The position numbers and the translations under genes were made by a program. A DNA stretch of 27,592 nt from IMG/VR virus record IMGVR_UViG_2522572164_000008; one strand, written 5' to 3'. This document shows, in pieces, positions 4,223 to 22,143 of this stretch (its first letter is position 1; every line of letters starts with the position of its first letter). The stretch comes from a virus. Its lineage: Duplodnaviria; Heunggongvirae; Uroviricota; Caudoviricetes. Below the pieces are notes generated by a model. That model made no database searches. It worked only from the letters and a program-made list of their open reading frames with translations, and was not told the origin of the DNA.

Positions 4223-4319
4223 CAACAGATCGGGCAATACATATGGCAAATGCATTTATGGCGATATTCATCGTAACAATGGCGTCCAGTTTTTATAATC
4301 CACATAAAAAGAGGGAAAA

Positions 4320-4703: not shown

Positions 4704-4718
4704 TAAAATGATGGGTGT

Positions 4719-4964
4719 ATGTATAAGCGCCCAATGAAAATATTCAAAAAAGGAAAAATAATGATTGGCTATATTCAAGAAACACAATTATTTCAGATGA
4801 TCCTGTCTGATGCAAAAAACTATGCAGAGTTAATTCGGCTGGCAAAAGAAACAGAAGACTACGAAGCATTAGAGCGTTACCGTGATGAAGTGCTGACGCT
4901 CAAGACACCTTTTAACATCGTATTGAATATGATTAATGATGCATTACAAGGAGAATACGCATAA
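4719..4964 (+). CDS. Hypothetical small protein (start ambiguous, alternative ATG at 4761)
   Basis: Open frame with AGGAAA upstream of the internal ATG at 4761; stop overlaps the start of the next gene. Confidence 0.4.
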   Translation: MYKRPMKIFKKGKIMIGYIQETQLFQMILSDAKNYAELIRLAKETEDYEALERYRDEVLTLKTPFNIVLNMINDALQGEYA

Positions 4965-5263
4965 TGGAAGAAGATATTAGCAATGCAATGGAACAACTTT
5001 TAGATCTGACTATCTCACTACAAACAAGAATAAATCAAGCCTATTCAGATTTATGCGATTACACGCTCTCTCAATGCGTTATTAGCTTAATGAAGGTGAA
5101 TGTAAGCCTTGACGATTTTATCTCTCTGGTGAGCGTATCAGAGGACGATGCAAAACAGTGTAATCAAATCATCACAGACATCGCCACCACGTTAAAGGTT
5201 GCAAGTGAAGAGATTCAGCAATTAGTAGATGATTTAGCAAAAAGTGCTATTTTCTCTAAATGA
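4964..5263 (+). CDS. Hypothetical protein (99 aa)
   Basis: RBS AAGGAGAA upstream; ATG overlaps the previous stop (TAATGG), suggesting translational coupling. Confidence 0.5.
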   Translation: MEEDISNAMEQLLDLTISLQTRINQAYSDLCDYTLSQCVISLMKVNVSLDDFISLVSVSEDDAKQCNQIITDIATTLKVASEEIQQLVDDLAKSAIFSK

Positions 5264-6253
5264 TAATGAAAATTATTTGCATTTATAATGATTTTGTTAT
5301 ATAATAATTTAGGGGTAGATAAAAAGATTTTAGTTGGTGTTAATCCTTCTACTGTCATAAATCCCTGCATATGGAAGGTGATAGCCTCAAAGGTTGAGTG
5401 GCATTAACCTCTAACAAATATTACCTTCCATCTCTCAAGAAGTTTTAGAATAATCATAACTCCCTCTTTGATTGTTGATTGTTGATTGTTTCTACGTTGT
5501 GTTGATGAATGTTGTTAGGCATTGTGCTTAATTTTGATAAAAGCGGGTAGGTGTTATCTCCTTGCCCTTCCCGCTCTTATTTTTCATCTATGCTTATCCT
5601 AAAGCTCCTTATTTTGTCAGAAAACATTAAAGAGCCTTACACTGATAGTTATATTTTATAACTATTTACTAACATCATTAAACTATTATTTAATGACAGA
5701 AGTTAGTAACAGAATAATCTATTAAGTTGTTGTCAAAAACAATCATCTGCATAGCGTTAGCCGCAAGCAGAGAGAGTTTAGCTAAGAATGGTGCAATAAA
5801 CTTTGGAAATATTGATAGCAAAACGGGTTTTATAGAATGCGGATCTATAAGCTTTGGTTGTAAAAACGATTTTCTGAAACGGTAGATTACTGTTGGTGTA
5901 GTTAATCATTATTAAAAATTTAATCCGTGAGTAGATTGGAATAGTGATTCCTTAAAATCTGACTGGTGCATCCACACCATGAAAGATAGCGGTTGGCCAC
6001 CGCGCCCCGAATAGATATTCCTGATTGATTCCGCATGTTTTCCTAAGAGCATGTTTTCAGGAGTATCTATTCACCCTTTAAGCATATCATCAAGTATATT
6101 TAAAAAGTGTATTTGCTGATATGTTTAATCCTCTTATAGTTTAACTTATCAATTATGTAATTGCCCGCACGTTAAAGCCCCTTTGCTGGTCAGAATTAAC
6201 CTCTTACGGCATTGGGGCTTTTTATTTGTCTGGCACTAACAGGAACATTATTT

Positions 6254-6451
6254 ATGAAACAAGAAATGATTATCAGCAAAGACGGGGAAACGATGATTGT
6301 TAGTGATGAAAACCTCATTAAGGTTGCCGCACTGTTGGGAGTTACTCCCGAAAGTCTTCGTTCTACCACTGCTCAATTATTTAAATCGGCTGATGCGGTT
6401 AGTCTTGCTGATGCCCTTAAATCTAAAATTAAACAACTGAAAGGAAAATAA
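6254..6451 (+). CDS. Hypothetical small protein (about 65 aa)
   Basis: ATG at 6254 with AGGAA 8 nt upstream; the ORF-track start at 6212 lies inside a terminator-like hairpin and is unlikely. Confidence 0.45.
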   Translation: MKQEMIISKDGETMIVSDENLIKVAALLGVTPESLRSTTAQLFKSADAVSLADALKSKIKQLKGK

Positions 6452-6455
6452 TCTT

Positions 6456-6839
6456 ATGGCTAACCCATATGGAAAATTAAAAGCAGTGAATGCGGATAAC
6501 TCCCGTTCACGCTGTAAGGTAGTAGCTTACGCTGCTGATCCAGTGCTGCAAGATCGCCTCGTCAAACTGGCTTCACCTCTCACTGACGATCTTATTGTCG
6601 GGGCTTTGCTGAAAGCCGATGGCACCAAAGCAACAACCGCATCTGATATTGCTCACGTAGTAGTTGAACCGGCTTATGAAGGACAGGAAAGCGTAGTGGT
6701 TGCACATCCTACTTTCGTTATTCTGGCTGAAGATGGGATTGAATTTAACAGCATGGAAAAGGCAAGTGTTATTGCAAAACTGCAATCTCTCGGCTTTGTA
6801 ATTGCTGGTTATGAAGAACTTGCGATCCCTACGACTTAA
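6456..6839 (+). CDS. Hypothetical protein (127 aa)
   Basis: RBS AAAGGAAAA; starts 4 nt after the upstream gene and is followed 14 nt later by the next gene. Confidence 0.55.
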   Translation: MANPYGKLKAVNADNSRSRCKVVAYAADPVLQDRLVKLASPLTDDLIVGALLKADGTKATTASDIAHVVVEPAYEGQESVVVAHPTFVILAEDGIEFNSMEKASVIAKLQSLGFVIAGYEELAIPTT

Positions 6840-6853
6840 CAAGGAAAATAATA

Positions 6854-7885
6854 ATGAATGATTTATCAACATATTTTGGCGTTAATACTGCGGTAGTAAC
6901 TCCATTTGCTTATGAGAATGCACTTAATACCCTGATTACTAATCTCGATCTGTTCGATGTGCAATATCATACAGAAAACAGCATTCTTCTTACCGACCTG
7001 ATTGATCAGTTTGTGCAGGTAGCTGGGGAAACCTCGCCTTACGCTCAAAGCGACTGGAACGCCTCTAAACGTCAGGAATGGTCAAACAAACTTTTCCAGA
7101 TGAAACACGTCGGCAGTATTAACGCTGTTACTTCTCGTGACCTGGAACAATACAGCCGCCAATATCCAAACCGTTCTGATGCTATGCTGATAGCGGTTAA
7201 TGATTTCTCTGAGGCTCATTACCGTTCACACGCAAACCGTGTTGAAGTGGATCTGATTACCGCGCTGCTGGGCCTGAAAGTTGAATCTGAATATGCCGGA
7301 CAAGGTGATCTCGACTTCCTCGACGGTCAGGCTAAAACCACGGTACCCGCTATCGACTTTGCATCGACTACTGTTAACCCGTTCCTTGCTATTCGTAAAG
7401 CGGTGCGCTTACAGAGTGAAAAGCTGGGGTCTGGTCTTGCTGCAAAGCGAACTGGTGTAATTATCTTTGCTGCTGGCACTGCTGCTGATGGTTTGTCATC
7501 TAACCCGCTGATCAGTGACATGGTGAAATATGCAGGCGATGCGAGTGCTACGGCCCTGTTTACCCGTATGGTTGATTCTAACCCAGCCTATGACTCTTTC
7601 CAGATTGGTGGGATCACTGTTATTGATGTGTCAATGTTTCCTGAGATTGTTGCTCACATCGGAGAGAACGGTTTCGCAATTGTTCCGGTAATGGATAAAG
7701 CGGCACAGTGTTACCAGCTTCATAGCGGCGTTGGTGTGCGTCATGCTGAGTTAGGTCAAGATGCCGTGTTGCATCACCAATATCTAATCAAGGATGAATT
7801 CCAATTCCCATCTGTGGTTACTGAGACATCTTATCTGCCAGTAAACAACATTCCGCAAGCTATCATCTTCGGATCTGCTGCGTAA
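6854..7885 (+). CDS. Hypothetical protein (343 aa), no recognisable catalytic or nucleotide-binding motif
   Basis: RBS CAAGGAAAA; long ORF with protein-like composition; no Walker A seen. Confidence 0.65.
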   Translation: MNDLSTYFGVNTAVVTPFAYENALNTLITNLDLFDVQYHTENSILLTDLIDQFVQVAGETSPYAQSDWNASKRQEWSNKLFQMKHVGSINAVTSRDLEQYSRQYPNRSDAMLIAVNDFSEAHYRSHANRVEVDLITALLGLKVESEYAGQGDLDFLDGQAKTTVPAIDFASTTVNPFLAIRKAVRLQSEKLGSGLAAKRTGVIIFAAGTAADGLSSNPLISDMVKYAGDASATALFTRMVDSNPAYDSFQIGGITVIDVSMFPEIVAHIGENGFAIVPVMDKAAQCYQLHSGVGVRHAELGQDAVLHHQYLIKDEFQFPSVVTETSYLPVNNIPQAIIFGSAA

Positions 7886-8036
7886 TAAAGCGTTAATAGA
7901 CGATTCCCCATCGGGGCAATAAGGGTAAAGGGATTAACTAACCTGTAGGCGCAAATACAGTAACGAATCTCTTTGCCCTTTTTGTTTTTCTACTGTCTAC
8001 AAACCCAAATAAAAATATATATGTGAGAGAAAACCA

Positions 8037-8234
8037 ATGAATACAGAAAACCCACAATCCTTTATTCTTAAGGCTGTAAAAGAACTGGCAGCTATTAGCG
8101 AGGAATCAGTTATAAACACATCGGCGCTTTGCCGCCTTTTAGAAATTGATGCAAATAATGTGCGCCAGCGTGTCTTTCAGACTGGGTGCAGCACTTTCGA
8201 AGCAATTCAATACTATTGCTCTAAAAAACAATAA
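8037..8234 (+). CDS. Possible small HTH-like protein (65 aa)
   Basis: Weak RBS; segment TSALCRLLEIDANNVRQRV is HTH-like. Could be non-coding leader. Confidence 0.3.
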   Translation: MNTENPQSFILKAVKELAAISEESVINTSALCRLLEIDANNVRQRVFQTGCSTFEAIQYYCSKKQ

Positions 8235-8268
8235 TAAACAACAATCATAATACAGGGAAACAATTAGC

Positions 8269-10110
8269 ATGTTAGAACTTAACGTCAGCCGCTTATCAAA
8301 CGTTGTCACCTTCCAGGTTGATCGACCATCATTAGAGAAAGCAAAAGCAGAAGTAGAAAAACTTCGTAAACAAATGGCGGCGGTGAAAGATATAGAATTG
8401 CGTGTTAAGACACATAAACAATCAACTTCTAAAGCAAAAAAAGACGTAGACGATATTGCTAAAAAGCAAGCACAGGCAGATAAAGCCAATGCTAAAGCAC
8501 AATTAGCCGCTCAACGTGTAGTTGCAAGAGAACAAAAAGCCCTGGCAGCACGCAAAGAGAAGGCAGACTTAAAACTGTTAGACGTTGGATCAAGCATTAG
8601 TGCATTGCACCGCCTTTCTGTAGCGGAACAATATAAAGCTATTGCACAGGCTAGAGAAATTGCCCTCCAATATGAAAGAGGAGCTATTAGTCTGGCACGT
8701 ATGAATAGCCAAATGAAACGCCTACAACAGCAACAACGTAAGATTAATGGCAATCGTAACGCTCACGCTAAAGCCTATGCACCTGTTAAGGGTAGCGGGA
8801 GTATTGGCGGCGGTGCTGCGGCTGTTATGCTGGGTGGCTTAGGCGCTGGCGCTACGTATATGGCTATGAGCAAAGCCTCTGAATTTGTTACTAACAGCTT
8901 TGCGAATGCTGAAACGCTGGGTGAATTGTATAGCCGTGCGAAGCTGGGCGGTGTAGACGTTAACCAGATGAACAATATTGAGCAATGGGCCTACAAAAAC
9001 GGCGTTGATTCAATGATGGGGGATCAAGGTAAACGTAAGTATCTCGATCAGATGAAAGATGTGCGTGAGCGTGCAACCAAAAGCTATGATGAGGCTGAAT
9101 ATGTAGTCGATAAAAAAACAGGCAAAGGTGAATGGAAGGGCGGCGATAGCGGCATCAATACTTTAATGAATGAAGGATTCTTAACTAAAAAGGATCTAAA
9201 AGACTTTGCTGATAATCCGGCTGGTCTGGTTAGTAAAGCAGTTCAGGGAATGGTGAAGAAAGGCTATTCAGATGCACAAATCGGTAGTCGTCTGGAAGAT
9301 CTGGCTGATGATTTGATGCTCACCTCTAAATACTGGACACGCTCCGCTAAAGAAGTGGAACAATCAGCACGAGAACAACGAGAATCAGGGCGCTGGGTAA
9401 CACAGGCACAACAGGAAAGCGTTATTAAATTCCGTGAACTGAATAATGCACTTAGTGGGCTTTCTGACTCACAAGGGATCGCCTTTGTTGATGGCTTTAT
9501 GAAATCTCTTGATCCGAAAGTGATTGAAGAGTTTAAAAAGAGCATGGTTGCAATGCTGCCAATGTTTACCAAATTAGGCGAGGCTATCGGCGGATTGGTT
9601 AACGCCGTAATGAAAACAATCAACTGGCTGATGAAAAACGACGAGAAGACGGAAGCTATTCAGAAGAATTTAGGGGATGCACCGCCACTATCTAACGAAG
9701 GAATGAAGCAGAATCTTTCTAATCTCACTCCTGATCAATATAAAGGCGCTGGCACCGGAACAACTAAGCCAGATAACAGCAATTCCCTGGTTAACACTAT
9801 TAAAAGCTGGTTTATGCCAGAAGAAACGGTAGGTGGGGCGCAGGCTGTAAATCAATACAGTCTCGAAGGACAAAACATTGCAAATCTGAAACAGAGTGCA
9901 GCACAACAAGCTTTCAAGGCTCCTTCTTACACCTTTGCACCTGTTATTAACTTCAATCCAGAATTACAAGTAAATGCAGAAGTGCCGCTAACTATCGAAT
10001 CAGACACCGGACGATTGAGCGAATTTATCGACTTCAAATCAAAGGCATCCTCCGCTGAGTTTAGCAAGCTATTAACGCTGGGTGTTATGTCAGGCGGGTC
10101 AACCTATTAA
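8269..10110 (+). CDS. Large protein (613 aa) with Lys/Ala/Gln-rich N-terminal predicted coiled coil, a Gly/Ala-rich hydrophobic segment and a roughly 400-aa C-terminal domain
   Basis: RBS CAGGGAAACA; residues about 20-160 are K/A/Q/E-rich heptad-like; about 170-200 reads GSGSIGGGAAAVMLGGLGAGATYMAM. Confidence 0.7.
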   Translation: MLELNVSRLSNVVTFQVDRPSLEKAKAEVEKLRKQMAAVKDIELRVKTHKQSTSKAKKDVDDIAKKQAQADKANAKAQLAAQRVVAREQKALAARKEKADLKLLDVGSSISALHRLSVAEQYKAIAQAREIALQYERGAISLARMNSQMKRLQQQQRKINGNRNAHAKAYAPVKGSGSIGGGAAAVMLGGLGAGATYMAMSKASEFVTNSFANAETLGELYSRAKLGGVDVNQMNNIEQWAYKNGVDSMMGDQGKRKYLDQMKDVRERATKSYDEAEYVVDKKTGKGEWKGGDSGINTLMNEGFLTKKDLKDFADNPAGLVSKAVQGMVKKGYSDAQIGSRLEDLADDLMLTSKYWTRSAKEVEQSAREQRESGRWVTQAQQESVIKFRELNNALSGLSDSQGIAFVDGFMKSLDPKVIEEFKKSMVAMLPMFTKLGEAIGGLVNAVMKTINWLMKNDEKTEAIQKNLGDAPPLSNEGMKQNLSNLTPDQYKGAGTGTTKPDNSNSLVNTIKSWFMPEETVGGAQAVNQYSLEGQNIANLKQSAAQQAFKAPSYTFAPVINFNPELQVNAEVPLTIESDTGRLSEFIDFKSKASSAEFSKLLTLGVMSGGSTY

Positions 10111-10157
10111 TCATCACTGTGGGGCTGTTTAGCCCCCTTAAATAAGGATTACAAATT

Positions 10158-10835
10158 ATGGCAATGGGTCCGTTAACCATTGGTCGCCCGACTGAGGCGA
10201 AAATCAACAGCACAAGCAACGATAGCAACGGTAGAACAACCAAAGGGGGTAACGGCTTTGCGATCATTACCTCTAATCTCGGCAGTGGTGCAAATGCTGC
10301 TTACAATGACTACCAGGCATTATCATTTGATAGCGTGGAATCGACGAAAGTTAGCAGAAATGCGGACGTTACAAGCTATGCCGTCGAATCAGGATCAGAA
10401 GTTAGTGATCATGTTCAAATACGGAATAACAAGTTCACATTACAAGGGCGTATCTCTGAAACCGTATTGAAGCTCAATCCTGATATGATTAAGAATGCTG
10501 GAATTAACGGCAATCGACGTATGCTTATGCTTGAATACCTAAATCAGTTGATGGACAGTCGCCAACCTTTCCTACTTGTCACTGAGTTAAAAAATTATGA
10601 CAACGTTGTGTTAGTTGGCATGTCTTACGAAGAAGAAGCAAGCGAAAGCCTATTGTTTACTCTTGATTTTGAGCAAATCCGTCTTGTCTCTAAAGCAACT
10701 ACAAGCGCAATTGCGGTAAAAACAGCACCAAATAAATCTGTAGGAGGCCAGGTTAAAATGCAGGTAAATACAACAGAACAGAAAAATCAAAAAAGCCCAG
10801 GGCAAGACGTTGTAACGCCAGTATTTAAACAATAG
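10158..10835 (+). CDS. Hypothetical protein (225 aa)
   Basis: RBS TAAGGATTACAAATT-ATG; last gene of the same-strand array. Confidence 0.6.
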   Translation: MAMGPLTIGRPTEAKINSTSNDSNGRTTKGGNGFAIITSNLGSGANAAYNDYQALSFDSVESTKVSRNADVTSYAVESGSEVSDHVQIRNNKFTLQGRISETVLKLNPDMIKNAGINGNRRMLMLEYLNQLMDSRQPFLLVTELKNYDNVVLVGMSYEEEASESLLFTLDFEQIRLVSKATTSAIAVKTAPNKSVGGQVKMQVNTTEQKNQKSPGQDVVTPVFKQ

Positions 10836-10876
10836 CCTTAAACGCCTATGAAACGCTCTGTAACGAGATAATCATA

Positions 10877-10908
10877 AAAGAGGCATCAGTCTATATTGAA
10901 GCCTCTTT
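10877..10908. terminator. Putative bidirectional terminator between convergent genes
   Basis: AAAGAGGC ... GCCTCTTT 8-bp inverted repeat followed by T-rich sequence, between the 225-aa gene stop and the integrase stop. The loop is long (16 nt). Confidence 0.4.
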
Positions 10909-10915
10909 ATTACGT

Positions 10916-11820
10916 CTATAGCGTTGTTTTACGCCTTAAATTTGATTTTTTATTGATTGATAAGCCTTTCTCTATTTCAGGGTAGCGTAAAAGCTCAATA
11001 TATTTTTTAAGCTCTATTGGAGAAGCTGCATTTTTGCTATATGTGCGGAATGTTTCTGTATTGCCGCGTGTATGGCCCAGGAGAAGGGCGATCCTGTCTT
11101 CTGGAATTTGATTTCGATCAAGAAGCTGTGCTACTCCGTGTCTCAGAGAATGAAACACTTTCCTTTCTGTTCCCTTTTCCCCTAAAGCCTTTCGTTTAGC
11201 TCTTGTAAATCGTTGTGTATGCCACGTAGAGCGTTTACCGTCAGCACGTTCTGTAATGCTGGCGTGATAGAACAAAAAGCCATTGTGAGGCTTTTCACGC
11301 AGCGACAACACCAACGGAGTGATAAGGTTATGCACAGGCACAACACGTGCCGCAGCTTTCGTCTTTCCCTGTGTGATTTCAAAACACAGCACACCTTCGA
11401 TCTCTTTCACATCGTCTATTGTGAGACTTGCTATCTCATTGATCCGCATACCTGTATATAAACCGATAAGACACAAAGCCGTCATTTCTTTGTTTTCTGC
11501 TGAATTACCGGAAAATACTTGCAACACCTGCAATAGCTCTTTGTTAGAAAATGCCTCGTAGCTCTCTCTACTTTGTGCCACATCAAGCCTATGCCCTCGC
11601 CAGGGGGAGAGCGCCCTTTCTGGCGCATCGTGGTAACGTGATGAAGCTAATTCCCATAGCTGGGCCATTGGACTGATATAATTTGCAATTGATTGTTGTG
11701 AAAGAGTTTTTTGCATGTGTTCAATCCAGCCTGTAACAGTGGTGCGGCTTACATCTTGCAATGCAATATCAGGCTTTTTACGGTAGGAGAGAAACATCTC
11801 TACCGCTTTTCTTGCCTTAG
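10916..11820 (-). pseudogene. Tyrosine integrase, C-terminal catalytic fragment (separated from its N-terminus by IS5)
   Basis: Contains H-x-x-R (FHSLRHG), LLGH and a C-terminal Tyr (RTYSK) typical of tyrosine recombinases. The first 23 codons of the ORF-track protein are read from inside IS5. Confidence 0.8.
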
Positions 11821-13015
<1,195 letters not shown>

Positions 13016-13479
13016 TTAGCTAAAGTGGCTGGCTTCTTCTTCGTGCTGTTAATTGTCAGGTAGATTTCAAGAATTTTAAGCAATGACGGACACGAAGACG
13101 CTGTATCTTGCACTCTGGTAGCTGTTTTGGCGTATTTAGCCTTACTGCGTAACAGTTCCAGCGTGTTTTCTATTGTGCTGTTTACAGGGGCAACACTCTC
13201 CCGTAAGCAATGGTATTCATCTGCAATCTGATCACGCTTTCTACGTGCAACACGAAGATTACTTGTGTGTAGACTTCTGACAAACGTCCTTTTTCCTTCA
13301 AAAAAGGGCTGCATATACACAGGCAGCGTGATCCTTAAATAGTAGTTACCGTAAGAATCACAGATTAAGTATTGGTTAGGCTTGTATCTCATAAAATCTC
13401 CGGCTAAAGTGTCGGAGCGTTTGTAATGTGAAAATTGATTGTGACGCATAGAAAATGATGATTTTTCTATAAGATTCAA
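13016..13479 (-). pseudogene. Tyrosine integrase, N-terminal fragment (continues at 11820-10916 across IS5)
   Basis: N-terminal integrase-like segment (YYLRITLP...GKRTFVRSL). The ORF-track protein then reads through into IS5 (about 36 aa of IS-derived sequence). Frame arithmetic shows the two fragments are in frame once IS5 and one TTAG copy are removed. Confidence 0.8.
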
Positions 13480-13644
13480 TCAATTAGTAATGGTCGTAGG
13501 TGATGGCATTAACACGAGATTAATCGAGTGTTTTACTCCTATTATCGGCACCATTCTAATGTCTCCCCAAGTCTACTCAAGTATTTAAAAACCTCTTATA
13601 ATCCGCATGTTAGCGCCCCTTTTAGTCTTTTGACGTCTACTTAA

Positions 13645-13717
13645 GTACCCCAAAATCTACAGTCAATTGGGGGTACTTTTGGGGGTATTTGCTGTTCAGT
13701 TTAGTGGAGGTACCCCC
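13645..13717. promoter_or_regulatory. GGGGGTA(C/T)/TACCCC(C) repeat cluster in the inter-integrase region
   Basis: Four copies in rev-fwd-fwd-rev orientation (13645-13651, 13669-13676, 13681-13688, 13709-13717), immediately upstream of and overlapping the integrase RBS. Confidence 0.4.
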
Positions 13718-13719
13718 AA

Positions 13720-14934
13720 GTGAAACTCAATGCCCGTCAAATAGACACTGCCAAGCCAAAAGAGAAGGCTTACAAGCTGGCTGATGGTGGTGGTCTGTAT
13801 CTCTTGGTAAAACCTAGTGGAGGAAAATATTGGCGCTTCAAGTATCGTGTAGCTGGTAAAGAGAAGCTGTTAGCACTAGGTGTGTATCCTGAAGTTACTT
13901 TGGCTGATGCTCGTGCAAAACGTGAAGAAGCTAAAAGGGGTATCGCTGGGGGTATCGATCCGATGGAAGCGAAACGAGAGGAAAAGATTGCCCGGGAAAC
14001 GCAGTTAAACAACACCTTCAAAGATATTGCCCTTGAGTGGCACAGCAGCAAATTAAAAAAATGGTCTGCTGGTTATGCTTCAGACATCCTCGAAGCCTTC
14101 AACAAAGATGTGTTCCCTTACATTGGCAAAAAACCAATCGCCGAAATCAAACCACTTGAACTGCTGAATGTGCTGCGGCGCATCGAGGGGCGCGGTGCTA
14201 CCGAAAAAGCCAAAAAAGTGAGGCAGCGATGCGGGGAAGTTTTCCGCTATGCAATTGTCACTGGACGTGCTGAGTATAACCCTGCACCGGATCTCACCAG
14301 CGCGATGCAAGGTCATGAATCTAATCATTATCCTTTCCTCACAGCCAAAGAATTACCTGATTTTTTCAAGGCATTGTCCAGTTACTCAGGAAGTGCATTG
14401 GTTGTTATGGCGGCTCGTCTACTGATTATCACCGGTTTGCGGACTGGCGAACTGCGCGGTGCATTATGGGATGAAATCGATCTCAACAAGGCTATCTGGG
14501 AGATACCTGCTTCACGGATGAAAATGCGTCGCCCTCATGTGGTGCCTTTGTCTAAGCAGGCTCTTTCGCTTATTGGGCAGATTAAAGAATTAACTGGCAA
14601 TTATCCGCTTATGTTTCCCGGCCGTAATGATCCAAGGAAAACAATGAGCGAGGCTAGCATAAACCAAGTATTTAAACGCATCGGCTATAACGGAAAGGTT
14701 ACTGGTCATGGATTCCGGCACACCATGAGCACCATTTTGCATGAGCAGGGCTATAACACCGCGTGGATAGAGACGCAGCTCGCACACGTCGATAAAAACT
14801 CAATTCGTGGCACATACAACCATGCGCAATATCTGGATGGACGGCGGGAAATGCTTCAGTGGTACGCCGATTATATGGATTCGCTCGAGCATGGCGGAAA
14901 TGTGGTGCATGGTGAGTTCGGAAAATGCGGGTGA
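13720..14934 (+). CDS. Tyrosine integrase, P4/CP4-57-like family (404 aa)
   Basis: GTG start with GGAGG 9 nt upstream; N-terminus ARQIDTAKPKEKAYKLADGGGLYLLVKPSGGKYWRFKYR typical of P4-type integrases; catalytic R...HGFRHT...Y region near the C-terminus. Confidence 0.9.
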   Translation: MKLNARQIDTAKPKEKAYKLADGGGLYLLVKPSGGKYWRFKYRVAGKEKLLALGVYPEVTLADARAKREEAKRGIAGGIDPMEAKREEKIARETQLNNTFKDIALEWHSSKLKKWSAGYASDILEAFNKDVFPYIGKKPIAEIKPLELLNVLRRIEGRGATEKAKKVRQRCGEVFRYAIVTGRAEYNPAPDLTSAMQGHESNHYPFLTAKELPDFFKALSSYSGSALVVMAARLLIITGLRTGELRGALWDEIDLNKAIWEIPASRMKMRRPHVVPLSKQALSLIGQIKELTGNYPLMFPGRNDPRKTMSEASINQVFKRIGYNGKVTGHGFRHTMSTILHEQGYNTAWIETQLAHVDKNSIRGTYNHAQYLDGRREMLQWYADYMDSLEHGGNVVHGEFGKCG

Positions 14935-15062
14935 CTGGTTGAGTATACAGTAGTAGACTTTGAGCGACGAAAGAAAAGGCTGTGTCTAGGGGCGCTCCCG
15001 AAAATCCGTACATCTCGACGGACTGGTACAGCCACTACAGTAGAGGACGCTGAGGTGTGCGT

Positions 15063-15860
15063 ATGATTGATATTCATGCCGAATTAAACGAATACAAAAA
15101 AGATTTTATTTCTTTACGTGAATTTCTTGAGGTCGTGCTTAAGGTCGCTGGTGATGATTATGATGTTTCAGATGTCATAACTTGGATACTCAGGAGAATA
15201 AGCGGAGAACATATCCGCCTGTACACAGTAAATGAATTTAAGCTGTTGGAATCTTTTTGTAACCCGTATCGGGATGAATTTGATTATGATGTTCTTTATA
15301 GAAATCTGAATGCGGTTCGGAAACGTGGTTGTTTACCTGGTGAGAGGGATGAAAATGGTTTTCTGGTGTCCGGTTATTGGGAAGATCCCGAATTTGAGAA
15401 CATTGGATTTATAAGGGGTGAAATTTTCGCAATTTTTCCCGATGTCCTTGACGCGTTAACGAAGCTGGAAGGCGCTAACTCTTCTGAAAATGACGAGGCA
15501 CAAGGACGCGATATTGAAAAGAAAGAGTTGCGTACAGAGGATGATTTATTATCCCAAATCGCAATGCTGGAAAAAGAAAACGCAGAGTTAAGGGCAAGGA
15601 TAGAGCAGTTAGAGCAAGAGCGCCCGATACACTTATATAAATACTGGGATAAAGACCCATTAGCTAAGGCTATTGAGATTAGAAACAGAGAGTGGGCCAA
15701 TTACGATCCAGAAAATGATTTTGCCACTAGGGGAAATCAAGAAGCGATAACCAGGGAGCTTAAGCAGTGGGGGGCAAGTAATGCTCTTGCAACGCTCATA
15801 GAGAGGACTGCCTGCCCTATTAACCGAGACAACAGCCAAAAGAACGCAAAGCCGGATTAA
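15063..15860 (+). CDS. Hypothetical protein with predicted coiled-coil segment (about 265 aa)
   Basis: ATG at 15063 with GAGGTG 6 nt upstream; coiled-coil-like EDDLLSQIAMLEKENAELRARIEQLEQE. Sits between int and alpA. Confidence 0.6.
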   Translation: MIDIHAELNEYKKDFISLREFLEVVLKVAGDDYDVSDVITWILRRISGEHIRLYTVNEFKLLESFCNPYRDEFDYDVLYRNLNAVRKRGCLPGERDENGFLVSGYWEDPEFENIGFIRGEIFAIFPDVLDALTKLEGANSSENDEAQGRDIEKKELRTEDDLLSQIAMLEKENAELRARIEQLEQERPIHLYKYWDKDPLAKAIEIRNREWANYDPENDFATRGNQEAITRELKQWGASNALATLIERTACPINRDNSQKNAKPD

Positions 15861-15875
15861 CGCACCATACCGCAT

Positions 15876-15985
15876 ACCCTGAGGGTGATTTACTGTTACC
15901 CTGAGGGTATTTTTTTATCTTCCCCGTCAATTTTACCATCACCCTTAGGGTTAATTTCCTTCCGGTAACCATTAGGCCTGAGGGT
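15876..15985. promoter_or_regulatory. Array of ACCCT-N-AGGGT palindromes upstream of alpA
   Basis: Perfect copies at 15876-15886 and 15898-15908, variant ACCCTTAGGGT at 15941-15951, partial at 15977-15985. Confidence 0.5.
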
Positions 15986-16054
15986 ATGAAAATATTCGTT
16001 ATTTCTGTGCCATGATTACCTCGTCAAATTGAGTAGACGTTATGAGGTAAATAT

Positions 16055-16252
16055 ATGTCAAATACGCTTATTCGTTTAACAGAAGTTCAGCGTAGAACTG
16101 GATATAGCAAGGCATGGATTTATCGCCTTATGGGGCAAGGTAAATTTCCTGCATCAGTTAAAATTGGCTCGCGAGCTATTGCTTTCGTTGAGAGTGAAAT
16201 TGACGAGTGGATTAATCAGCGTATTGCTGAATCACGCGGAACAGCTACCTGA
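16055..16252 (+). CDS. alpA: AlpA-family phage transcriptional regulator/excisionase-like HTH protein (65 aa)
   Basis: Sequence LIRLTEVQRRTGYSKAWIYRLMGQGKFPASVKIGSRAIAFVESEIDEWI matches the AlpA family pattern; RBS GAGGTAAATAT-ATG. Confidence 0.85.
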   Translation: MSNTLIRLTEVQRRTGYSKAWIYRLMGQGKFPASVKIGSRAIAFVESEIDEWINQRIAESRGTAT

Positions 16253-16330
16253 TTAAATGGCTACGGGGCCAGAAGCCCCCAGCTATCCACCAGCAAATAA
16301 AAGTAACTTAATTCGATAGCAGGAGTTTTT

Positions 16331-17131
16331 ATGAAACTGCGAAAAACGCCCGTACAGGGGCAGGGCTTCGTTCGGCCTGAAAACCAGAATCTGCAAAATT
16401 TCGGCGAAATTATCCCGGTTATTTCCGGCGTTATTGGCGGGCGTGAAACCAATATTGTTAGCGGCAGAGCGTTGCATAAGGCGTTAGGTGTAGGTCGCGT
16501 TTTCCGTTCGTGGATCAAGGGGCGCATTGAAGAATACGGCTTCACGGAAGGCGTGGATTATGAGGTTGTTGAATATTTGAGCCGACCCGATCCGGTGAGC
16601 GCAAAATCTCGCCAGCAAACAGCTCTTGAGTACATCATTACCGTGAACATGGCGAAAGAACTGGCGATGGTCGAACGCACCGAACAGGGGCGCGCCGTTC
16701 GTCAGTACTTCATCAAATGCGAGGAAGAGCTACACAAGGTTGCGCCTGTACGTTCCGCAGCGTTACGCCGGGAACTGAAAGCCCGTATCACAGTTGCCAG
16801 CTACTTTAAGCCAATGTGTGCCGCGCTGGAGGACTACCGGGCTGAACTGGGTAAAAACACTCTACAGCACCACTACACCACGGAAGCCAATATGCTGGCG
16901 CGTATCGTGCTGGGTGGCATGACTGCAAAACAGTGGGCGCAGGTGAACGGCATCACAGGCGAACCACGCGACCACATGAGCACGTTGCAGCTTGAGCACC
17001 TTTCTTACCTTGAGCAGAGCAATATCACGCTGATTGAGTTAGGCCAGGACTACCACCAGCGGAAGGCTGAATTAATTCGTCTTTCGCAGCGTTGGTTAGC
17101 CCGTCGCATGGAGGAAAACAGCCATGTGTAA
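16331..17131 (+). CDS. Phage antirepressor-like protein (266 aa)
   Basis: RBS AGGAG; N-terminal region resembles prophage antirepressor proteins as recalled. Family assignment tentative. Confidence 0.6.
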   Translation: MKLRKTPVQGQGFVRPENQNLQNFGEIIPVISGVIGGRETNIVSGRALHKALGVGRVFRSWIKGRIEEYGFTEGVDYEVVEYLSRPDPVSAKSRQQTALEYIITVNMAKELAMVERTEQGRAVRQYFIKCEEELHKVAPVRSAALRRELKARITVASYFKPMCAALEDYRAELGKNTLQHHYTTEANMLARIVLGGMTAKQWAQVNGITGEPRDHMSTLQLEHLSYLEQSNITLIELGQDYHQRKAELIRLSQRWLARRMEENSHV

Positions 17132-17590
17132 CGCTCTGACCGTTACAAAAAGAGAAAGCGCCCCGTTGCCGGAGCGCCTTTGTGAACGAATAGCCTACTG
17201 CGCCATATTGCTTACTGTCTACGAGGCAGATTATAGCGTTGTGGTCGCACAGAGTGAAGGCGCTGATCACCGTTACTACAGCACGCCAGAAATGCAGAAT
17301 ATTTTGCTGCAAAATGCCGTTGGCCACGCTGTCCGGAAAGCAAAAAATTTTGCTGGTGGCGCGACTGATGCGATTTTGTCAGGTCGCCAGGTGCTGATCA
17401 ATCTGATGTCTGATTTCGTTCTGGATAAAACAAAGGCGACCGCAGAGAGCCGCCAGTGGAAAAGCTACATACTTGAACGCATCACCAACAATGCCACATT
17501 TGCGGCTGGTGGGCAATGTGTCAGCTTTGCACCAATGACTCTAGGTTTAACTGAGGGTCATTATGGTGAATATGCTGGCTTGCTGGTGGG
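17124..17590 (+). other. Coding-like 5' part of a 1.57-kb stop-free frame; status unresolved, possibly a decayed or fused gene
   Basis: ATG at 17124 overlaps the upstream stop and has GGAGGA 9 nt upstream, but the frame has no stop until 18692 and runs antisense through a plausible minus-strand gene and a promoter region. The end coordinate is arbitrary. Confidence 0.3.
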
Positions 17591-17848
17591 CTATTCCTGC
17601 TCTTTAACATCGCCATGCCGCGATGTTTTCCAGGTATGCGACCCCATTTTTGTGCGCCTGTACTCTTTAAGGAATTTCTCAAGGATAAACGCACAGGGCG
17701 CGAATCTGTCTGACTCATGCTCGTACGCTATCTTTCTGCGCTGTCTTTTCCGTGCCGGTGATGGTGTATTGGTTGATTCTTTGTTGGTCATGGCGCTGCC
17801 CTGTAAAACGATGCACCGTAGTTCCTCACACCACGGCGCTGGTGATGG

Positions 17849-18154
17849 TTACTCCTGTTCTTTGGCCTTGCGCCGCTGGAGTTCTTCACGCGCGACGGTG
17901 ACGAGTTGCCCGATCTCCTCGGCTGCTTTGACACCGATTTTTTCCACCTGCGCCAGTGCATCGAGCGAAGAAACCAGGGGATTTTCTCCGCTTCCTTCTG
18001 CCTGGCGGCGGGCGATTTCACCGCGAACGGCTGTAATCACGAAAGCGGCTATTGTTTCCCCTTCCGTTTTCGAATTTTCCATTTCCTCGATTACATCATG
18101 GGGGAAGCGGATATTTTTCATTTGCGATCTGCTGTTGATGTTTCCTGTTGCCAT
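17849..18154 (-). CDS. Putative ribbon-helix-helix-type regulator with C-terminal coiled coil (101 aa)
   Basis: MKNIRFPHDVIEEMEN strand-helix pattern; divergent from the downstream plus-strand operon across a palindrome-rich region. No clear SD. Confidence 0.6.
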   Translation of the reverse strand: MATGNINSRSQMKNIRFPHDVIEEMENSKTEGETIAAFVITAVRGEIARRQAEGSGENPLVSSLDALAQVEKIGVKAAEEIGQLVTVAREELQRRKAKEQE

Positions 18155-18176
18155 CAGAATGTCCGGTTATTTTGAG

Positions 18177-18279
18177 GTGTGTACACATTACACCAAAAGG
18201 TGTGTTGATAAAACACTTGACACTGTAGCACACTTAAATCTAATCTGTATATACACTAATGATTGTGGTGTATATACAG
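18177..18279. promoter_or_regulatory. Divergent promoter/operator region with three palindromes
   Basis: Perfect 12-bp inverted repeat CTGTATATACAC (18245-18256) / GTGTATATACAG (18268-18279) with 11-bp spacer; TGTGTACACA (18177-18186); ACACCAAAAGGTGT (18190-18203); TTGACA at 18217-18222 with a TAATCT -10 candidate 18 bp downstream. Confidence 0.55.
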
Positions 18280-18346
18280 CAACGCCCCGCAGTGGTGGCA
18301 CACATGCAGGGCGTCTAACCAAACCGTTAAACGAGGTAACGATTAT

Positions 18347-18692
18347 GGCTGGAACACAGCATACCCAAACTCACCCTAAATTTATATACACCTTCCTGGC
18401 GGTGCACCGTGATTGCATAGCTGACGGTAAAAACACTGTACACGTAGCCGCTGATACGCTGGTTGATGCCTGCGAGATGCTCAATGACATGGGCTATATC
18501 TCGGCAACATGGAAAGGGCGCGAAGAAAACACGCTGTTTATTCAGAAATGCGAGAACAATTTTATCTGGCGTTTTATCGCCCTGAGCACAGCACAACCGC
18601 GCGTAATTCACATCGAGGCCACCAGCGAACAGGAAGCGCGTCAGCAATCTCCTGATGGCTGCGTGATGGTATTCGCTGCCCGTATTCGCTAG
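18347..18692 (+). CDS. Hypothetical protein (115 aa)
   Basis: ATG at 18347 with GAGGTAACGATT upstream; this is the 3' part of the long stop-free frame and is probably the real gene. Confidence 0.5.
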
Positions 18693-18702
18693 GAGGTGCA
18701 CC

Positions 18703-19068
18703 ATGCATAACCTGTCAATTTATGACCTTAACAGCATTCAGTTTCGTGAGAAATTCACCGAGCAGCTACTGGTTAACGTGGAGAATGGACGCGTGGTAAG
18801 TAATTATCACCTGCCGGATGGTGCAATTGCCGGAAGCGTTGAAGCATTGCTGGAACTGGCAGAACGTGCGCGACTTATTAAGCCGTTAACGAACCATCAC
18901 GATGATGATCTGCATTTTACCGGACGCATGGTGAGTCACTACGAAAACGGCGTCGAGGTATCCCGCGAACGGCTGCGTGATGATTGCTGTTTCGGAACAC
19001 TGCCGGAATTTAGCGAACTGCTGACCCGTTGCGATTACCGGATCATTCAGGGGGGAAGTCATGGGTAA
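18703..19068 (+). CDS. Hypothetical protein (121 aa)
   Basis: Strong RBS TAGGAGGTGCACC-ATG. Confidence 0.6.
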   Translation: MHNLSIYDLNSIQFREKFTEQLLVNVENGRVVSNYHLPDGAIAGSVEALLELAERARLIKPLTNHHDDDLHFTGRMVSHYENGVEVSRERLRDDCCFGTLPEFSELLTRCDYRIIQGGSHG

Positions 19069-19261
19069 TCAGCCAGCAACAATGACAATTACCCTGAATG
19101 TGCCAGATGATTTCACCGGGCGCGTACTGGTTTACCTGGATAAAGGGAAAGTGAAATCACAATGCCGACTGCGAAATAATGAAATTGTAAGTACGGTAGA
19201 AGGCTTTTCTGAACTATGTATTCGTGCAGGAATAAAACCGGAACTGCTGACAGGAAAATAA
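19061..19261 (+). CDS. Hypothetical small protein (66 aa)
   Basis: RBS GGGGGGAAGTC-ATG; start overlaps the upstream gene end. Confidence 0.5.
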   Translation: MGNQPATMTITLNVPDDFTGRVLVYLDKGKVKSQCRLRNNEIVSTVEGFSELCIRAGIKPELLTGK

Positions 19262-19265
19262 AACC

Positions 19266-19556
19266 ATGAAAAAGAAAAATTCTGGCTTTACTGCCAGCGG
19301 CCTCTCTCGGTCTGCAATTCGCTCTGGCGATATTTACCGCGACACCAGACGTGGGGGACGAGTGGTTATTCGTCACGTTACGCCAGGCAATATCACCTAC
19401 CGCCGTGAGGCTTACGAATATGACTGCGTAATGCCGCGCCGTCAGTTTGAGCGTGATTTTATTCTGGTGGAAAACAAACAATTGGCGGTGGCAAGACGTG
19501 CAGCCTCGAATATTAAAAAAATCCGGGCAATGTTGGTTGCGGGAGGTAAGAAGTGA
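19266..19556 (+). CDS. Hypothetical small basic protein (96 aa), possibly of a conserved island-associated family
   Basis: Motif GDIYRDTRRGGRVVIRHV...YEYDCVMPRRQFERDF resembles small proteins recalled from P4-integrase islands; stop overlaps the start of the next gene. Confidence 0.5.
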   Translation: MKKKNSGFTASGLSRSAIRSGDIYRDTRRGGRVVIRHVTPGNITYRREAYEYDCVMPRRQFERDFILVENKQLAVARRAASNIKKIRAMLVAGGKK

Positions 19557-21685
19557 AAAACGCACCGAATTTAAAATATCAGCCAAAGGATAAATTCACC
19601 GAGGTAATCATTTTTGCCGGGACGGATGCTTACGCCCATGCTCAACACTGGATTGAAAGCGAAGGACGAAAACACGGCGATAACGTGCCACCTGTTTACC
19701 TGGGGCCAACGCAACTGGCAGATCTGGCTAATATCCGCATTATCGACGATGAGCGCCGCTTTGCGCGTGTTTATATCGCGGGGGAGATAGAGCCAATCCA
19801 GATCAATGCTATCGCTGAAAAGCTGGCGCTGGCTGGCGTACAGGATGCGAAATTATACAAAGGCATCACCGACCGGGAGCCGGAGAACTGGCGCGACTAC
19901 CTGCAACGGATCCGCGAACAGGCAGAGCGCGGGGAAACCATTCCTGAAGGAATCGGAATAGCTGGTGGATCACCCGGTAAAACAGACCCCATGAAACCGC
20001 ATATTACCGAAAAAGACGGGGCGCTCTGGTATATCGAGCCAATCCCCAACACCAGGGCAGAGGAGATGAATTATAAAGAAACCTGGCTGAGTGACCGGAT
20101 GCGCACGGCAGGTATTGGTAACGACGGAAGGGAAGCGTATCTGATCATTGAAATGATCCCGGAAGGGACACAAAAAATTATTTACGAAGCGATGCCGCGC
20201 AATGAAATCGGTATGCCCGCAGGATGGGCGCGATTACGTGGGCGGGGAGTTGCAATCACTACCAGTGCCCATTTACTGAACAAACTGGCGGAATACCTGC
20301 AACGTCATGGAGATCGCACGGTGTGGGAGGTCACATCAACAGCAGGTTGGCATTGTGGAGCCTATGTTATGCCTGATGGCGAGGTGATTGGTGTGCCTGA
20401 CCGTCCCGTAGCATTCTGCGGCGGATCTGCCGCCATCAAAGGCTATATTGTCAGGGGCACGGTGCATGAATGGCGAAATAATGTTGCTTCTCTGATGCGT
20501 GGCAATCACTCAATGATGCTTGGGGTGCTGGTCGGGCTGGCAGCCCCGCTAAATTCCCTTGTGGGTGGTAGTTGTTTTGGTATTCATCTTTTCGCGCAGT
20601 CGTCAGCGGGGAAAACCACGACTGTGGAGGCCGCCACCAGCCTTTATGGCGACCCTGAAATGCTTAAACTCTCGTGGGATGCCACCCGGCACGGGCTGAC
20701 AGTGGAAGCAGCTGCACGTAATGACGGTTTTATCCCTATTGATGAAATTGGTCAGGGAGGAAGGGTTAATGACATTGCGCAATCCGCCTACAGCCTGTTT
20801 AACGGTGTGGGCAGGATTCAGGGGCGCAAGGACGGCGGTAATCGTGCGGTAATGCGCTGGAAAATAGCGGCACTAAGCACCGGAGAAGAAGATTTTGAAA
20901 CCTTCCTGTTAAAAGGGGGAATTGCCCCAAAGGCAGGGCAACTGGTGCGACTGCTAAGCATTCCCTTTACCGATACAACGGTGTTTAACGGTTATGACGA
21001 TGGTGATCAACATGCCAGGGCCATAAAGCGACTTTCATCAAATTATTGTGGCGCTGCGGGACGTGAGTGGGTGCGCTGGTTATCCGCTCACAAGGAGCTG
21101 GCTATCAACACCACTTCAGATAAAGAAAATGCCTGGCTGGGAAATCTGCCTGAAAATGCCTCGTCACAGGTAAGGCGAGTGGCATCGCGATTCGCCATGC
21201 TGGATGCAGCCGGAGAGCTTGCCACCGCAATTACTGGCTGGACAGCTGAAGAATGCCGGGAAGCAACGCAACGGGCTTTTGATGACTGGCTACAGGATTT
21301 CGGGCTGGAAAACCGGGAAAAATATCAGGTCATCAGTCGCGCCCGTGACTTTATTCAGCGCCATGCCCTGAGTCGTTTTCAGCCTTATACCTACGGGAAA
21401 AGCAATGGGGATATGGATAACCACTATGCATCCCGTATAAGCAATCTTGCAGGCTATCTTGTCAGCGGTAAGCGTGAGGATGGAAAACCCGAATATCACA
21501 TTATCCCGTCAGTGTTTGATAGCGAAATTTTATGCGGTATATCCAGGAACTTTGGGTGTCAGGCGCTGGAAGAAGCCGGAATGCTGGTTTGTGCAGAACC
21601 TGGTCGCTGGACATCGAAAACAGTGAAGATTAACGGAACACAGCAGCGATTTATCGTGCTGATTGATCAGGCAGAAGACGAATAG
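19553..21685 (+). CDS. Replication protein, primase/helicase-like P-loop NTPase (710 aa)
   Basis: GTG start with GGAGGT upstream; Walker A GxxxxGKT (FAQSSAGKTTTVE); large N-terminal domain; followed directly by an iteron array. Confidence 0.75.
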   Translation: MKNAPNLKYQPKDKFTEVIIFAGTDAYAHAQHWIESEGRKHGDNVPPVYLGPTQLADLANIRIIDDERRFARVYIAGEIEPIQINAIAEKLALAGVQDAKLYKGITDREPENWRDYLQRIREQAERGETIPEGIGIAGGSPGKTDPMKPHITEKDGALWYIEPIPNTRAEEMNYKETWLSDRMRTAGIGNDGREAYLIIEMIPEGTQKIIYEAMPRNEIGMPAGWARLRGRGVAITTSAHLLNKLAEYLQRHGDRTVWEVTSTAGWHCGAYVMPDGEVIGVPDRPVAFCGGSAAIKGYIVRGTVHEWRNNVASLMRGNHSMMLGVLVGLAAPLNSLVGGSCFGIHLFAQSSAGKTTTVEAATSLYGDPEMLKLSWDATRHGLTVEAAARNDGFIPIDEIGQGGRVNDIAQSAYSLFNGVGRIQGRKDGGNRAVMRWKIAALSTGEEDFETFLLKGGIAPKAGQLVRLLSIPFTDTTVFNGYDDGDQHARAIKRLSSNYCGAAGREWVRWLSAHKELAINTTSDKENAWLGNLPENASSQVRRVASRFAMLDAAGELATAITGWTAEECREATQRAFDDWLQDFGLENREKYQVISRARDFIQRHALSRFQPYTYGKSNGDMDNHYASRISNLAGYLVSGKREDGKPEYHIIPSVFDSEILCGISRNFGCQALEEAGMLVCAEPGRWTSKTVKINGTQQRFIVLIDQAEDE

Positions 21686-21717
21686 CACAACCTACGCTCG
21701 CAGAGGGTCAAAAATCG

Positions 21718-21990
21718 CGGGATATGCGGGATATCGGGATATGGAAATATATTGCATAAATATCAGTTATTTATGTGTTGTTGTCGTATCCCGCTGTATC
21801 CCGCCGTATCCCGGTATTTAGGTTTACGAGTGGTTGTAAAACAAACAAAATAACCGTATCCCGGAATGTATCCCGCAATATCTTATTGATGCATAAGCAA
21901 AAAAAAACTTACCGGGATATGGCGGGATATGAAAAATCACATAACGCTATGAAATAAATGGGTTTTTTTTGTTTATATCCCGATATCCCG
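21718..21990. repeat. Iteron array: 12 copies of the octamer CGGGATAT (or its complement) in alternating blocks, with A/T runs; candidate replication origin
   Basis: Forward copies at 21718, 21727, 21735, 21913, 21923; reverse copies at 21787, 21797, 21807, 21857, 21868, 21975, 21983; A- and T-runs at 21899-21907, 21963-21970 and 22005-22013. Confidence 0.7.
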
Positions 21991-22143
21991 GTAAAAAATG
22001 TTTTTTTACGCCTTATAGAGTACAGAAAAAAAGGTTGTTCAAATTTTGTATTACGATTGACTACTGTCAGCCATCCCACCCGGAAAAGGCATAAAAGCTG
22101 ACAGGTAACTGACAATGAGACTGTTTTATTTTTACGTGCCGAT

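Follow-up and report, generated by a model that had tools for sequence, protein, structure and literature searches.

The closest described counterpart of an attachment (att) site next to a P4-like integrase gene is that of P4 itself (Pierson & Kahn 1987; NC_001609). P4 targets the 3' end of the tRNA gene leuX through a 20-bp core, its integrase gene, int, reads away from the tRNA, and a gene for an AlpA/Vis-type excisionase lies downstream. The GenBank record annotates 'attP arm sequence repeats' (TTGGGGGCAYNN): on the int strand, a tandem pair (GTGGGGGCACAA and AAGGGGGCATAT) is followed by 53 nt, the core, 112 nt and a second pair (TTGGGGGCATAA and TTGGGGGCATCT), and an inverted repeat (TGTGCCCCCAAA) abuts the int ATG. 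According to PMC7286903 and the work cited there (Pierson & Kahn 1987, Cali 2004 and Piazzolla 2006), both Int and Vis of P4 act as repressors of the int promoter, Pint, and IHF acts there, where an IHF site is present. In KplE1 (CPS-53) of Escherichia coli K-12, which targets argW, experimentally mapped sites in attL follow the order tRNA 3' end, sites of the excisionase TorI, P' arm-type sites with a TAAA-containing motif, and intS; the excisionase and arm-type sites overlap the intS promoter, and Int and the excisionase repress int (Panis et al. 2010, PMC2951348). The tRNA-Thr gene thrW is a known hot spot of integration (PMC7545054). In K-12 it is occupied by CP4-6, whose minus-strand integrase gene, intF, lies at the right end beside a 47-nt 3' fragment of thrW and the native flank (yagP/paoD). 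Tandem arrays of phage-inducible chromosomal islands (PICIs) resolved by TIGER/Islander have three direct att copies, one of them an internal hybrid att, and their components also occur singly (PMC10111431). Here we compared with these systems the interval between two divergent integrase genes, intA on the minus strand and intB on the plus strand, in a 27,592-nt stretch of viral-record DNA (IMG/VR record IMGVR_UViG_2522572164_000008), the whole of which is called the window below.

The interval is very probably the internal att site of a tandem array, in which two unrelated integrative islands lie side by side at thrW, and the GGGGGTA repeats in it are the arm sites of the P4-type integrase of the right-hand island. 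We call the left island A and the right island B (features in Table 1). An earlier, sequence-only reading of the window had described divergent integrase genes, the minus-strand one interrupted by an IS5 element, with GGGGGTA-type repeats and no tRNA between them, and had proposed either a junction of two elements or a composite island with its att site elsewhere.

The place of the window was found by a megablast search of positions 12800-15000 against complete E. coli genomes. Genomes of the O104:H4 outbreak matched at 100% from the edge of the IS5 element onward, and in E. coli 55989 and many others the match started only at position 13535, where the annotated feature was tRNA-Thr. The thrW locus of the nearest complete genome, O104:H4 2011C-3493 (L001), was used as the reference. 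Window positions 1-11820 correspond to L001 8191-20010 with 100% identity, and positions 13011-27592 to L001 20001-34582 with 99.98% identity; outside the IS5 element the two differ only by an extra A at 23911 and a single-base change at 26514. The order in 2011C-3493 is proA, thrW, a 13-kb block with a minus-strand integrase gene at its far end (island A), the P4-like integrase gene with a further 15 kb (island B), a truncated LysR gene and paoD. In 55989, proA and tRNA-Thr (thrW) are followed by the same P4-like integrase gene 166 bp on. As judged from the reference, thrW ends 606 bp before the equivalent of window position 1, so the full tRNA gene is absent from the window. On the other side, the window closes with the stop codon of the penultimate gene in island B.

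At 13535-13553, the sequence ACTCCTATTATCGGCACCA reproduces the final 19 nt of thrW without a mismatch (19/19 nt when thrW of both genomes was aligned with the interval). It occurs once in the window, and 100 shuffled sequences gave no match even when three mismatches were allowed. The window sequence left of this core matches the right end of A-only genomes without a difference; beyond the core, those genomes continue into the native thrW flank. The window sequence right of the core matches the thrW-int interval of 55989 just as exactly. What lies at the junction is an attR of island A joined to an attL of island B at the thrW core. The two integrase genes stand back to back across one core because each island has its att site just upstream of its own integrase gene, in opposite orientation relative to the tRNA. 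The 19-nt copy at the junction would have been left when A integrated into an intact thrW already flanking B.

In the O104:H4 locus the exact 19-nt core is present twice, at thrW itself and at the junction, and a search of the 2011C-3493 locus allowing up to three mismatches found no third copy of it. The right-end core of B was recognized by reading the sequence beside the second GGGGGTA pair, about 1.3 kb beyond the window end in 2011C-3493. It is TCCTATTATC-GCACCA with a 1-nt deletion (TATC-GCACCA; L001 35873-35888). Read by its att sites, the locus is thrW, A, core, B, degenerate core and LysR pseudogene, with three directly repeated att copies, only the internal one of which is inside the window. 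The 1-nt deletion in the right-most thrW core was also found at the right junctions of two further loci (L084 and L085), whether A or B abuts the native flank, and the right-most core is intact in K-12. The deletion is probably decay of a redundant, non-functional duplicate of the tRNA end.

ARAGORN found no complete tRNA or transfer-messenger RNA gene in the window, and Rfam found no tRNA or other RNA family in the interval (interval in E-value mode, whole window in gathering mode), so the sequence-only reading was right about complete genes but missed the exact thrW 3' end. The fragment is too short for ARAGORN and was located by the comparison with 55989 and a pattern search. The apparent anomaly of a P4-like integrase without a tRNA arose because the window starts just past thrW and because a fragment of 19 nt escapes both visual inspection and tRNA finders. 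The att core lies inside the interval and not elsewhere; a tRNA gene in the flanking genome and a repeat at the far end, for both of which a search had been suggested, are present as thrW and as the degenerate core beyond B. The reported spacing of 240 bp between the integrase genes has to be corrected, as it came from calling the start of the longest open reading frame (ORF), TTG 13479. The intA start is ATG 13392 (RefSeq annotation in L001 and in L087, the locus of strain 1070/13), with GGAG 5 nt upstream, which makes the gap 327 bp.

Comparison with other genomes separated the two islands, as the proposal of a junction of two elements had implied. The empty site, in which thrW is directly followed by TTAAAATCAAAG and the LysR pseudogene, was found at 100% coverage in 948 of 5426 genomes. 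At thrW, island B occurs alone in E. coli 55989, island A alone in 2009EL-2071 and ET791, and both together in 2011C-3493. In strain 1070/13 (L087; regions 1-2145 and 15160-15824), an intF-type element lies between thrW and A, with a 47-nt thrW fragment at their junction; thrW arrays can hold differing combinations of elements. Grad et al. 2013 (PMC3551546) described an island, GI-6, 'by aspV and thrW', with a region 1 that is absent from 55989 and a region 2 that is absent from other isolates. Region 1 fits island A, and region 2 would then be island B.

The second part of the finding concerns the repeats. The motif GGGGTAY/RTACCCC is present at 6 sites in the window (2.8 expected), and four of these fall within 72 bp (13645-13651 on the minus strand, 13670-13676 and 13682-13688 on the plus strand, 13710-13716 on the minus strand), where about 0.007 would be expected. 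The four copies reported from the sequence are therefore present, far beyond chance. Three of them make up a tandem pair, P'1/P'2, and an inverted copy, P'3. As had been noticed, the last copy overlaps the ribosome-binding region of intB, lying between GGAGG (13706-13710) and the GTG start at 13720; a repeat finder gave the inverted copy as GTACCCCCAA at 13710-13719. An identical 20-mer, GGGGGTACTTTTGGGGGTAT, is found at both ends of island B, and its right-end (P-arm) copy is outside the window at L001 35794-35813. The right-end pair (P1, P2) lies 57 nt before the degenerate core, and the spacer from the junction core to P'1 is 115 nt. Judged by this match to the annotated layout of P4, the GGGGGTA repeats are P4-type arm-type sites.

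We then compared 80 loci encoding IntB relatives (61-100% identity) from many Enterobacterales genera. Sixty of the relatives were scanned for tRNA genes; 53 have one upstream of int (Thr-CGT, Arg-TCT, Arg-CCT, Gly-CCC, SeC or Ser-TGA), and in most it ends about 165 bp from the start codon. Despite these differing targets, a de novo search recovered a direct pair in 12-13-bp phase with a downstream inverted copy in all but a few of the 80, the phase being exactly 12 bp in all but two loci; in most relatives the repeats are at -50, -38 and -9 from the int start. The motif itself differs among loci. In a classification covering 69 loci, drawn from the 80 relatives plus the window and P4, the classes were GGGGGTA (38 loci), GGGGGCA (22, P4 included) and GTATAG (9). 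Rarer variants such as GGGGGCT, GGGGGCC and GGGGTG also occur. Within any one locus the variant is identical at all three sites.

The motif class follows one domain of the integrase. The only alignment columns, out of 404, that distinguish the GGGGGTA from the GGGGGCA class without exception are residues 29, 50 and 53, all three in the arm-binding domain: they are L, L and L/I/V with GGGGGTA arms, and E/Q, R and F with GGGGGCA arms. The nearest non-close relative had the same motif class in 69 of 69 cases when chosen by the N-terminal domain and in 47 of 69 when chosen by the C-terminal domains, a comparison that controls for shared ancestry of the loci only partly. Three loci (L016-L018) illustrate this. 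They also use thrW as target, and the C-terminal part of their integrases has 80% identity to that of IntB; the N-terminal domain has only 63%, and their arms are GGGGGCA. Such a pattern would be expected if the N-terminal domain reads the repeats, and would be hard to reconcile with chance or an unrelated regulator.

A further tandem pair, GGGGTATCGCTGGGGGTATCG, was seen inside intB at 13937-13955 on the plus strand (codons about 73-79, RGIAGGI), in 12-bp phase like P'1/P'2. It is kept in most of the closest subfamily (80-100% identity), and synonymous changes break it in L004, L012 and L014. The P4 record also annotates one arm repeat within int. The pair might serve as an additional arm site within the gene, or it might be a coincidence of coding.

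Set beside P4, the attL of island B is very similar. IntB is 43% identical to P4 Int over the full length (E 2e-117) and has the same three domains (Arm-DNA-bind_3 at residues 3-88, core-binding Phage_int_M and catalytic Phage_integrase); its residues 2-99 match the solved arm-binding domains of P4-like integrases, 3ju0 and 3jtz/3rmp. Both use a tRNA 3' end with a core of 19-20 bp, with the integrase gene reading away from the tRNA. The arm repeats are laid out alike: one pair in 12-bp phase precedes the core, a second pair follows it at a distance of about 112-115 nt, and an inverted copy, P'3 in the window, abuts the start codon of int (GTG here). Both also have an AlpA/Vis-type gene downstream. 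The unit, however, is TTGGGGGTAY here and TTGGGGGCAY in P4, the target is thrW instead of leuX, the cargo differs (AntA, DUF927 primase, ProQ/FinO, PerC and PARIS in island B), and the tRNA-proximal side of the core is occupied here by another island and not by the tRNA body. KplE1, which has a related integrase (Sf6/IntS-type integrases are about 49% identical to IntB), shares the order of elements in attL and differs in target and arm motif; its sites were mapped by experiment and ours are predicted.

Island A resembles CP4-6 in its thrW site, in the minus-strand integrase gene at the right end beside a thrW 3' fragment and in its native flank, but its thrW fragment is 19 nt instead of 47 nt and its content is different. 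A relationship of IntA to IntF was rejected, because the identity is about 25% and confined to the catalytic region, as was one to IntB (E 0.04); the three integrases are mutually unrelated outside the catalytic fold. The array as a whole resembles the tandem PICIs in its three direct att copies, internal hybrid att and singly occurring components, and a doubled motif at fixed distances on both sides of the attP crossover was also described there. Those arrays have mostly related integrases at fis, whereas here two unrelated families in opposite orientation share a thrW core. Every element of this locus has a described precedent, and it is an ordinary junction of tandem islands at thrW, with a P4-type attL whose arm carries the GGGGGTA variant. 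It matters little in itself; it resolves the puzzle of a P4-like integrase without a tRNA, gives exact boundaries of two thrW islands in O104:H4-type E. coli, and defines the att sites relevant to excision of island B, a PARIS carrier. A by-product, modestly new, is the family-wide picture of an arm motif that co-varies with three residues of the integrase N-terminal domain, together with an independent family of RTCTAC repeats described below.

The composite island that the sequence-only reading had considered would consist of A and B as modules of one element, moving as a unit via its outer att copies with redundant or cooperating integrases. The outer copies, thrW and the degenerate right core, do bracket both integrase genes, and A and B are adjacent in at least 15 complete genomes of different lineages with 93-100% identity. 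An exact core copy lies between them, however, and divides what would otherwise be a single conventional element spanning both integrases. Moreover, each island occurs without the other, A being present in 141 genomes and the A-B pair in 15, the integrases are unrelated outside the catalytic fold, and the left outer site lacks the arm repeats of B, the only GGGGGTA pairs being those that flank B. We regard a composite as very unlikely and two separate islands in tandem as the proper description.

Two other explanations concern the repeats. They could be operators of another regulator, such as AlpA or an island repressor, that serve only intB expression: they extend over the ribosome-binding site and start codon of intB, they are located where one would look for a promoter, and the island encodes an AlpA-family protein. 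But the same tandem pair adjoins the core at the other island end, 15 kb from intB, which is unexpected for a simple int operator, the motif class follows the N-terminal arm-binding domain and not the rest of the integrase, the P4 record annotates these repeats as attP arm repeats, and the RTCTAC repeats, which vary independently of the arm class, are a better candidate for AlpA. This explanation is improbable, though less so than a composite island. The other explanation is chance or low complexity, or a hairpin in RNA or DNA without a protein partner. The inverted pair GTACCCC...GGGGTAC is present in the window as had been reported, a 7-bp pair with an 18-nt loop, and two weak, sub-threshold microRNA-like Rfam matches in the interval are artefacts that merely reflect it. 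No Rfam family reached the threshold in the interval, most relatives lack the left half of the pair (13645-13651), and it is the 12-bp-phased pair and the inverted copy at -9 that are fixed in position. With four sites in 72 bp, positional conservation and lineage-specific switching of the motif, this explanation is effectively refuted, and P4-type arm sites of IntB remain the preferred reading of the repeats.

Several points weigh against reading the interval as a thrW junction with IntB arm sites. The function of the repeats is argued from homology and co-variation, and the order of events, A after B, from strain comparison. The 1-nt deletion in the right-end core might impair excision of B. 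The fourth GGGGTAY copy (13645-13651) is not conserved. A sigma-70 scan gave no good plus-strand promoter upstream of intB, and in the subfamily of the window the counterpart of the -35 box has diverged and is no longer the TTGAAA seen in relatives.

If island B works as P4 and KplE1 do, the N-terminal arm-binding domain of IntB would bind the P and P' repeats and its C-terminal domains the core, so that IntB would bridge arm and core sites. With AlpA, the putative excisionase, and IHF bending the P' arm, IntB would form a complex that recombines the junction core (13535-13553) with the core at the right end and so excises B. By analogy with P4 and KplE1, IntB at P'1-P'3 would also repress intB transcription. 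Relatives have a TTGAAA -35 box and, 17-18 nt downstream of it, a TAYATT or CATAAT box, which overlaps P'1 and extends into the P'1-P'2 spacer; this layout would place the -10 box under bound Int. In the window, autoregulation of intB cannot be tied to a mapped promoter, because the -35 box has diverged and no promoter passes the scan. The sole sigma-70 match (9/12; minus strand, 13580 to 13553, directed toward intA) spans the last core base and B-side sequence and is not conserved in A-alone genomes; it was treated as chance.

The fourth GGGGTAY copy was found only in the window, in L003 and in one clade of 86% identity. In an alignment of 23 diverse P' arms, it falls on the middle position of an array of RTCTAC-type hexamers in 10-bp phase, with the consensus GTCTAC N4 GTCTAT N4 ATCTAC, and a related array lies just after the core. 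The hexamer shifts in concert within a locus (TCTAC, TCCAC, TCAAC or TCAAT; TCCGA in P4), and its variant is independent of the arm class. The TCAAC clade has a divergent AlpA-like protein with about 30-36% identity, compared with 64-87% in most TCTAC loci from which AlpA was recovered, L013 being one exception. Direct repeats one helical turn apart are typical of excisionase sites, as stated in PMC7498355, and the TorI sites of KplE1 are likewise placed after the core and before the P' sites (PMC2951348). We therefore propose the RTCTAC arrays as candidate AlpA excisionase sites, with rather less than even confidence.

A broader idea is equally tentative. Residues 29, 50 and 53 of the N-terminal domain and the T or C at position 6 of TTGGGGGYAY might constitute a readable recognition code, with a third class, GTATAG, having its own signature and RTCTAC being a matching AlpA code. 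If the three residues do determine specificity, the arm specificity of any P4-family island would be predictable from sequence, cross-talk or insulation between co-resident islands, for example in tandem arrays, could be forecast, and arm recognition could be redesigned separately from the tRNA target.

Table 1. Features around the junction of islands A and B in the window (L001 is the thrW locus of E. coli 2011C-3493)
Feature	Position	Strand	Basis or remark
intA C-terminal fragment (catalytic domain), cut by IS5	10916-11820	-	100% identity to L001
TTAG 4-bp target duplication of IS5	11817-11820 and 13016-19		
IS5-family (ISKpn26-like) element, 1195 bp	11821-13015	+	junctions against uninterrupted target in 2011C-3493; annotated ISKpn26-family in strain 1070/13
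IS5 transposase ORF	11889-12869	+	
intA N-terminal fragment (DUF6538 region)	13016-13392	-	start ATG 13392
Island A int-proximal arm (upstream of intA to core)	13393-13534		identical up to the core in genomes with A alone
att core, 19 nt of thrW 3' end; attR of A and attL of B	13535-13553	+	55989 match begins exactly here
P' arm of island B P4-type att site, also intB regulatory region	13554-13719	+	100% identical to thrW-int interval of 55989; conserved blocks in 23 diverse relatives including P4
First RTCTAC array (candidate AlpA sites), GTCTAC at 13571	13571-13594	+	24-nt direct repeat with 13635-13658
Second RTCTAC array (candidate AlpA sites): GTCTAC 13635, GTACCC 13645, ATCTAC 13655	13635-13660	+	10-bp phase
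Predicted arm repeat P'1, TTGGGGGTACTT	13667-13678	+	same position as P4 annotated repeat TTGGGGGCATAA; at -50 in relatives
Predicted arm repeat P'2, TTGGGGGTATTT	13679-13690	+	head to tail with P'1, 12-bp phase
Predicted arm repeat P'3, inverted, TTGGGGGTACCT on minus strand	13708-13719	-	between ribosome-binding site and intB GTG; at -9 in relatives
intB, P4-family tyrosine integrase, 404 aa, GTG start	13720-14934	+	Pfam and identity to P4 Int
IntB residues 29, 50, 53	13804-13806, 13867-13869, 13876-13878		candidate arm-specificity determinants
int-alpA RNA motif, Rfam RF02996, just downstream of intB	14979-15046	+	44.2 bits against gathering score 35.8
alpA, 65 aa, AlpA/Vis-family helix-turn-helix	16055-16252	+	Pfam Phage_AlpA E 2.4e-19; coordinates transferred from L001 23046-23243

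The interruption of the minus-strand integrase gene was confirmed. The inserted element has the ends GGAAGGTGCGAA...TTCGCACCTTCC, a length of 1195 bp, a DDE transposase and a 4-bp TTAG target duplication, as in the IS5 family. Intact intA encodes 425 aa (L001 19106-20383; Pfam Phage_integrase, Phage_int_SAM_5 and DUF6538). Because IS5 splits its integrase gene, island A cannot excise on its own here. In our collection, the IS5::intA allele of the window was present in only two records, strain 1070/13 and a derivative, both without island B. The 2009 O104:H4 isolates 2009EL-2071/2050, also without B, have IS5 in the neighbouring Dit-like gene and not in intA. The exact configuration of the window was found in no complete E. 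coli genome of the collection. If the IS5::intA allele is identical by descent, B would have been gained or lost after the insertion, which would argue for recent mobility of B.

Island A is 13 kb long (window 1-13534), low in GC (34-46%) and phage-like. It was found in 141 E. coli genomes at a coverage of at least 80%, with 98.5-100% identity in the 40 best-matching genomes listed. Its genes include those for a DNA invertase, a replication-initiator-like protein, a protein with a weak match to a major head protein, a tape-measure protein, a Dit-like tail protein and the integrase with a DUF6538 N-terminus, and long stretches (about 1277-3274 and 5264-6455) are poor in ORFs. The island could be a phage remnant or a satellite. 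No convincing arm-repeat family was found for IntA, the two ends of A sharing only a 23-nt imperfect palindrome and a few 9-mers. Two features precede intA: a hairpin at 13398-13417 with a 7-bp stem, which includes the GGAG ribosome-binding site in its 3' half as read on the intA strand, and, further upstream, a 23-nt imperfect inverted repeat at 13433-13455 and 13463-13485 (AATTGATTGTGACGCATAGAAAA / TTTTCTATAAGATTCAATCAATT). The hairpin or the inverted repeat could be involved in control of intA or be an arm site.

Island B is a P4-family island of about 15 kb. It has P4-type arm repeats on both arms, an intact integrase gene, an AlpA-family gene and the int-alpA RNA motif, which is the sole Rfam family in the window in gathering mode; B may be competent for excision at present. 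AlpA is likely the excisionase or regulator of the island, as judged by its family. No sid, psu or delta gene was seen in the annotation and Pfam results of island B. The PARIS anti-phage system is located at the island end: AriA (E 5e-43) is encoded by the last gene of the window (26608-27592, plus strand), and AriB (DUF4435, E 3.6e-22) just past the window end (L001 34575-35555). The extra A at 23911 is in a poly-A run (A7 compared with A6 in 2011C-3493) and turns a hypothetical gene of island B encoding 380 aa into two ORFs, 23120-23923 and 23940-24263.

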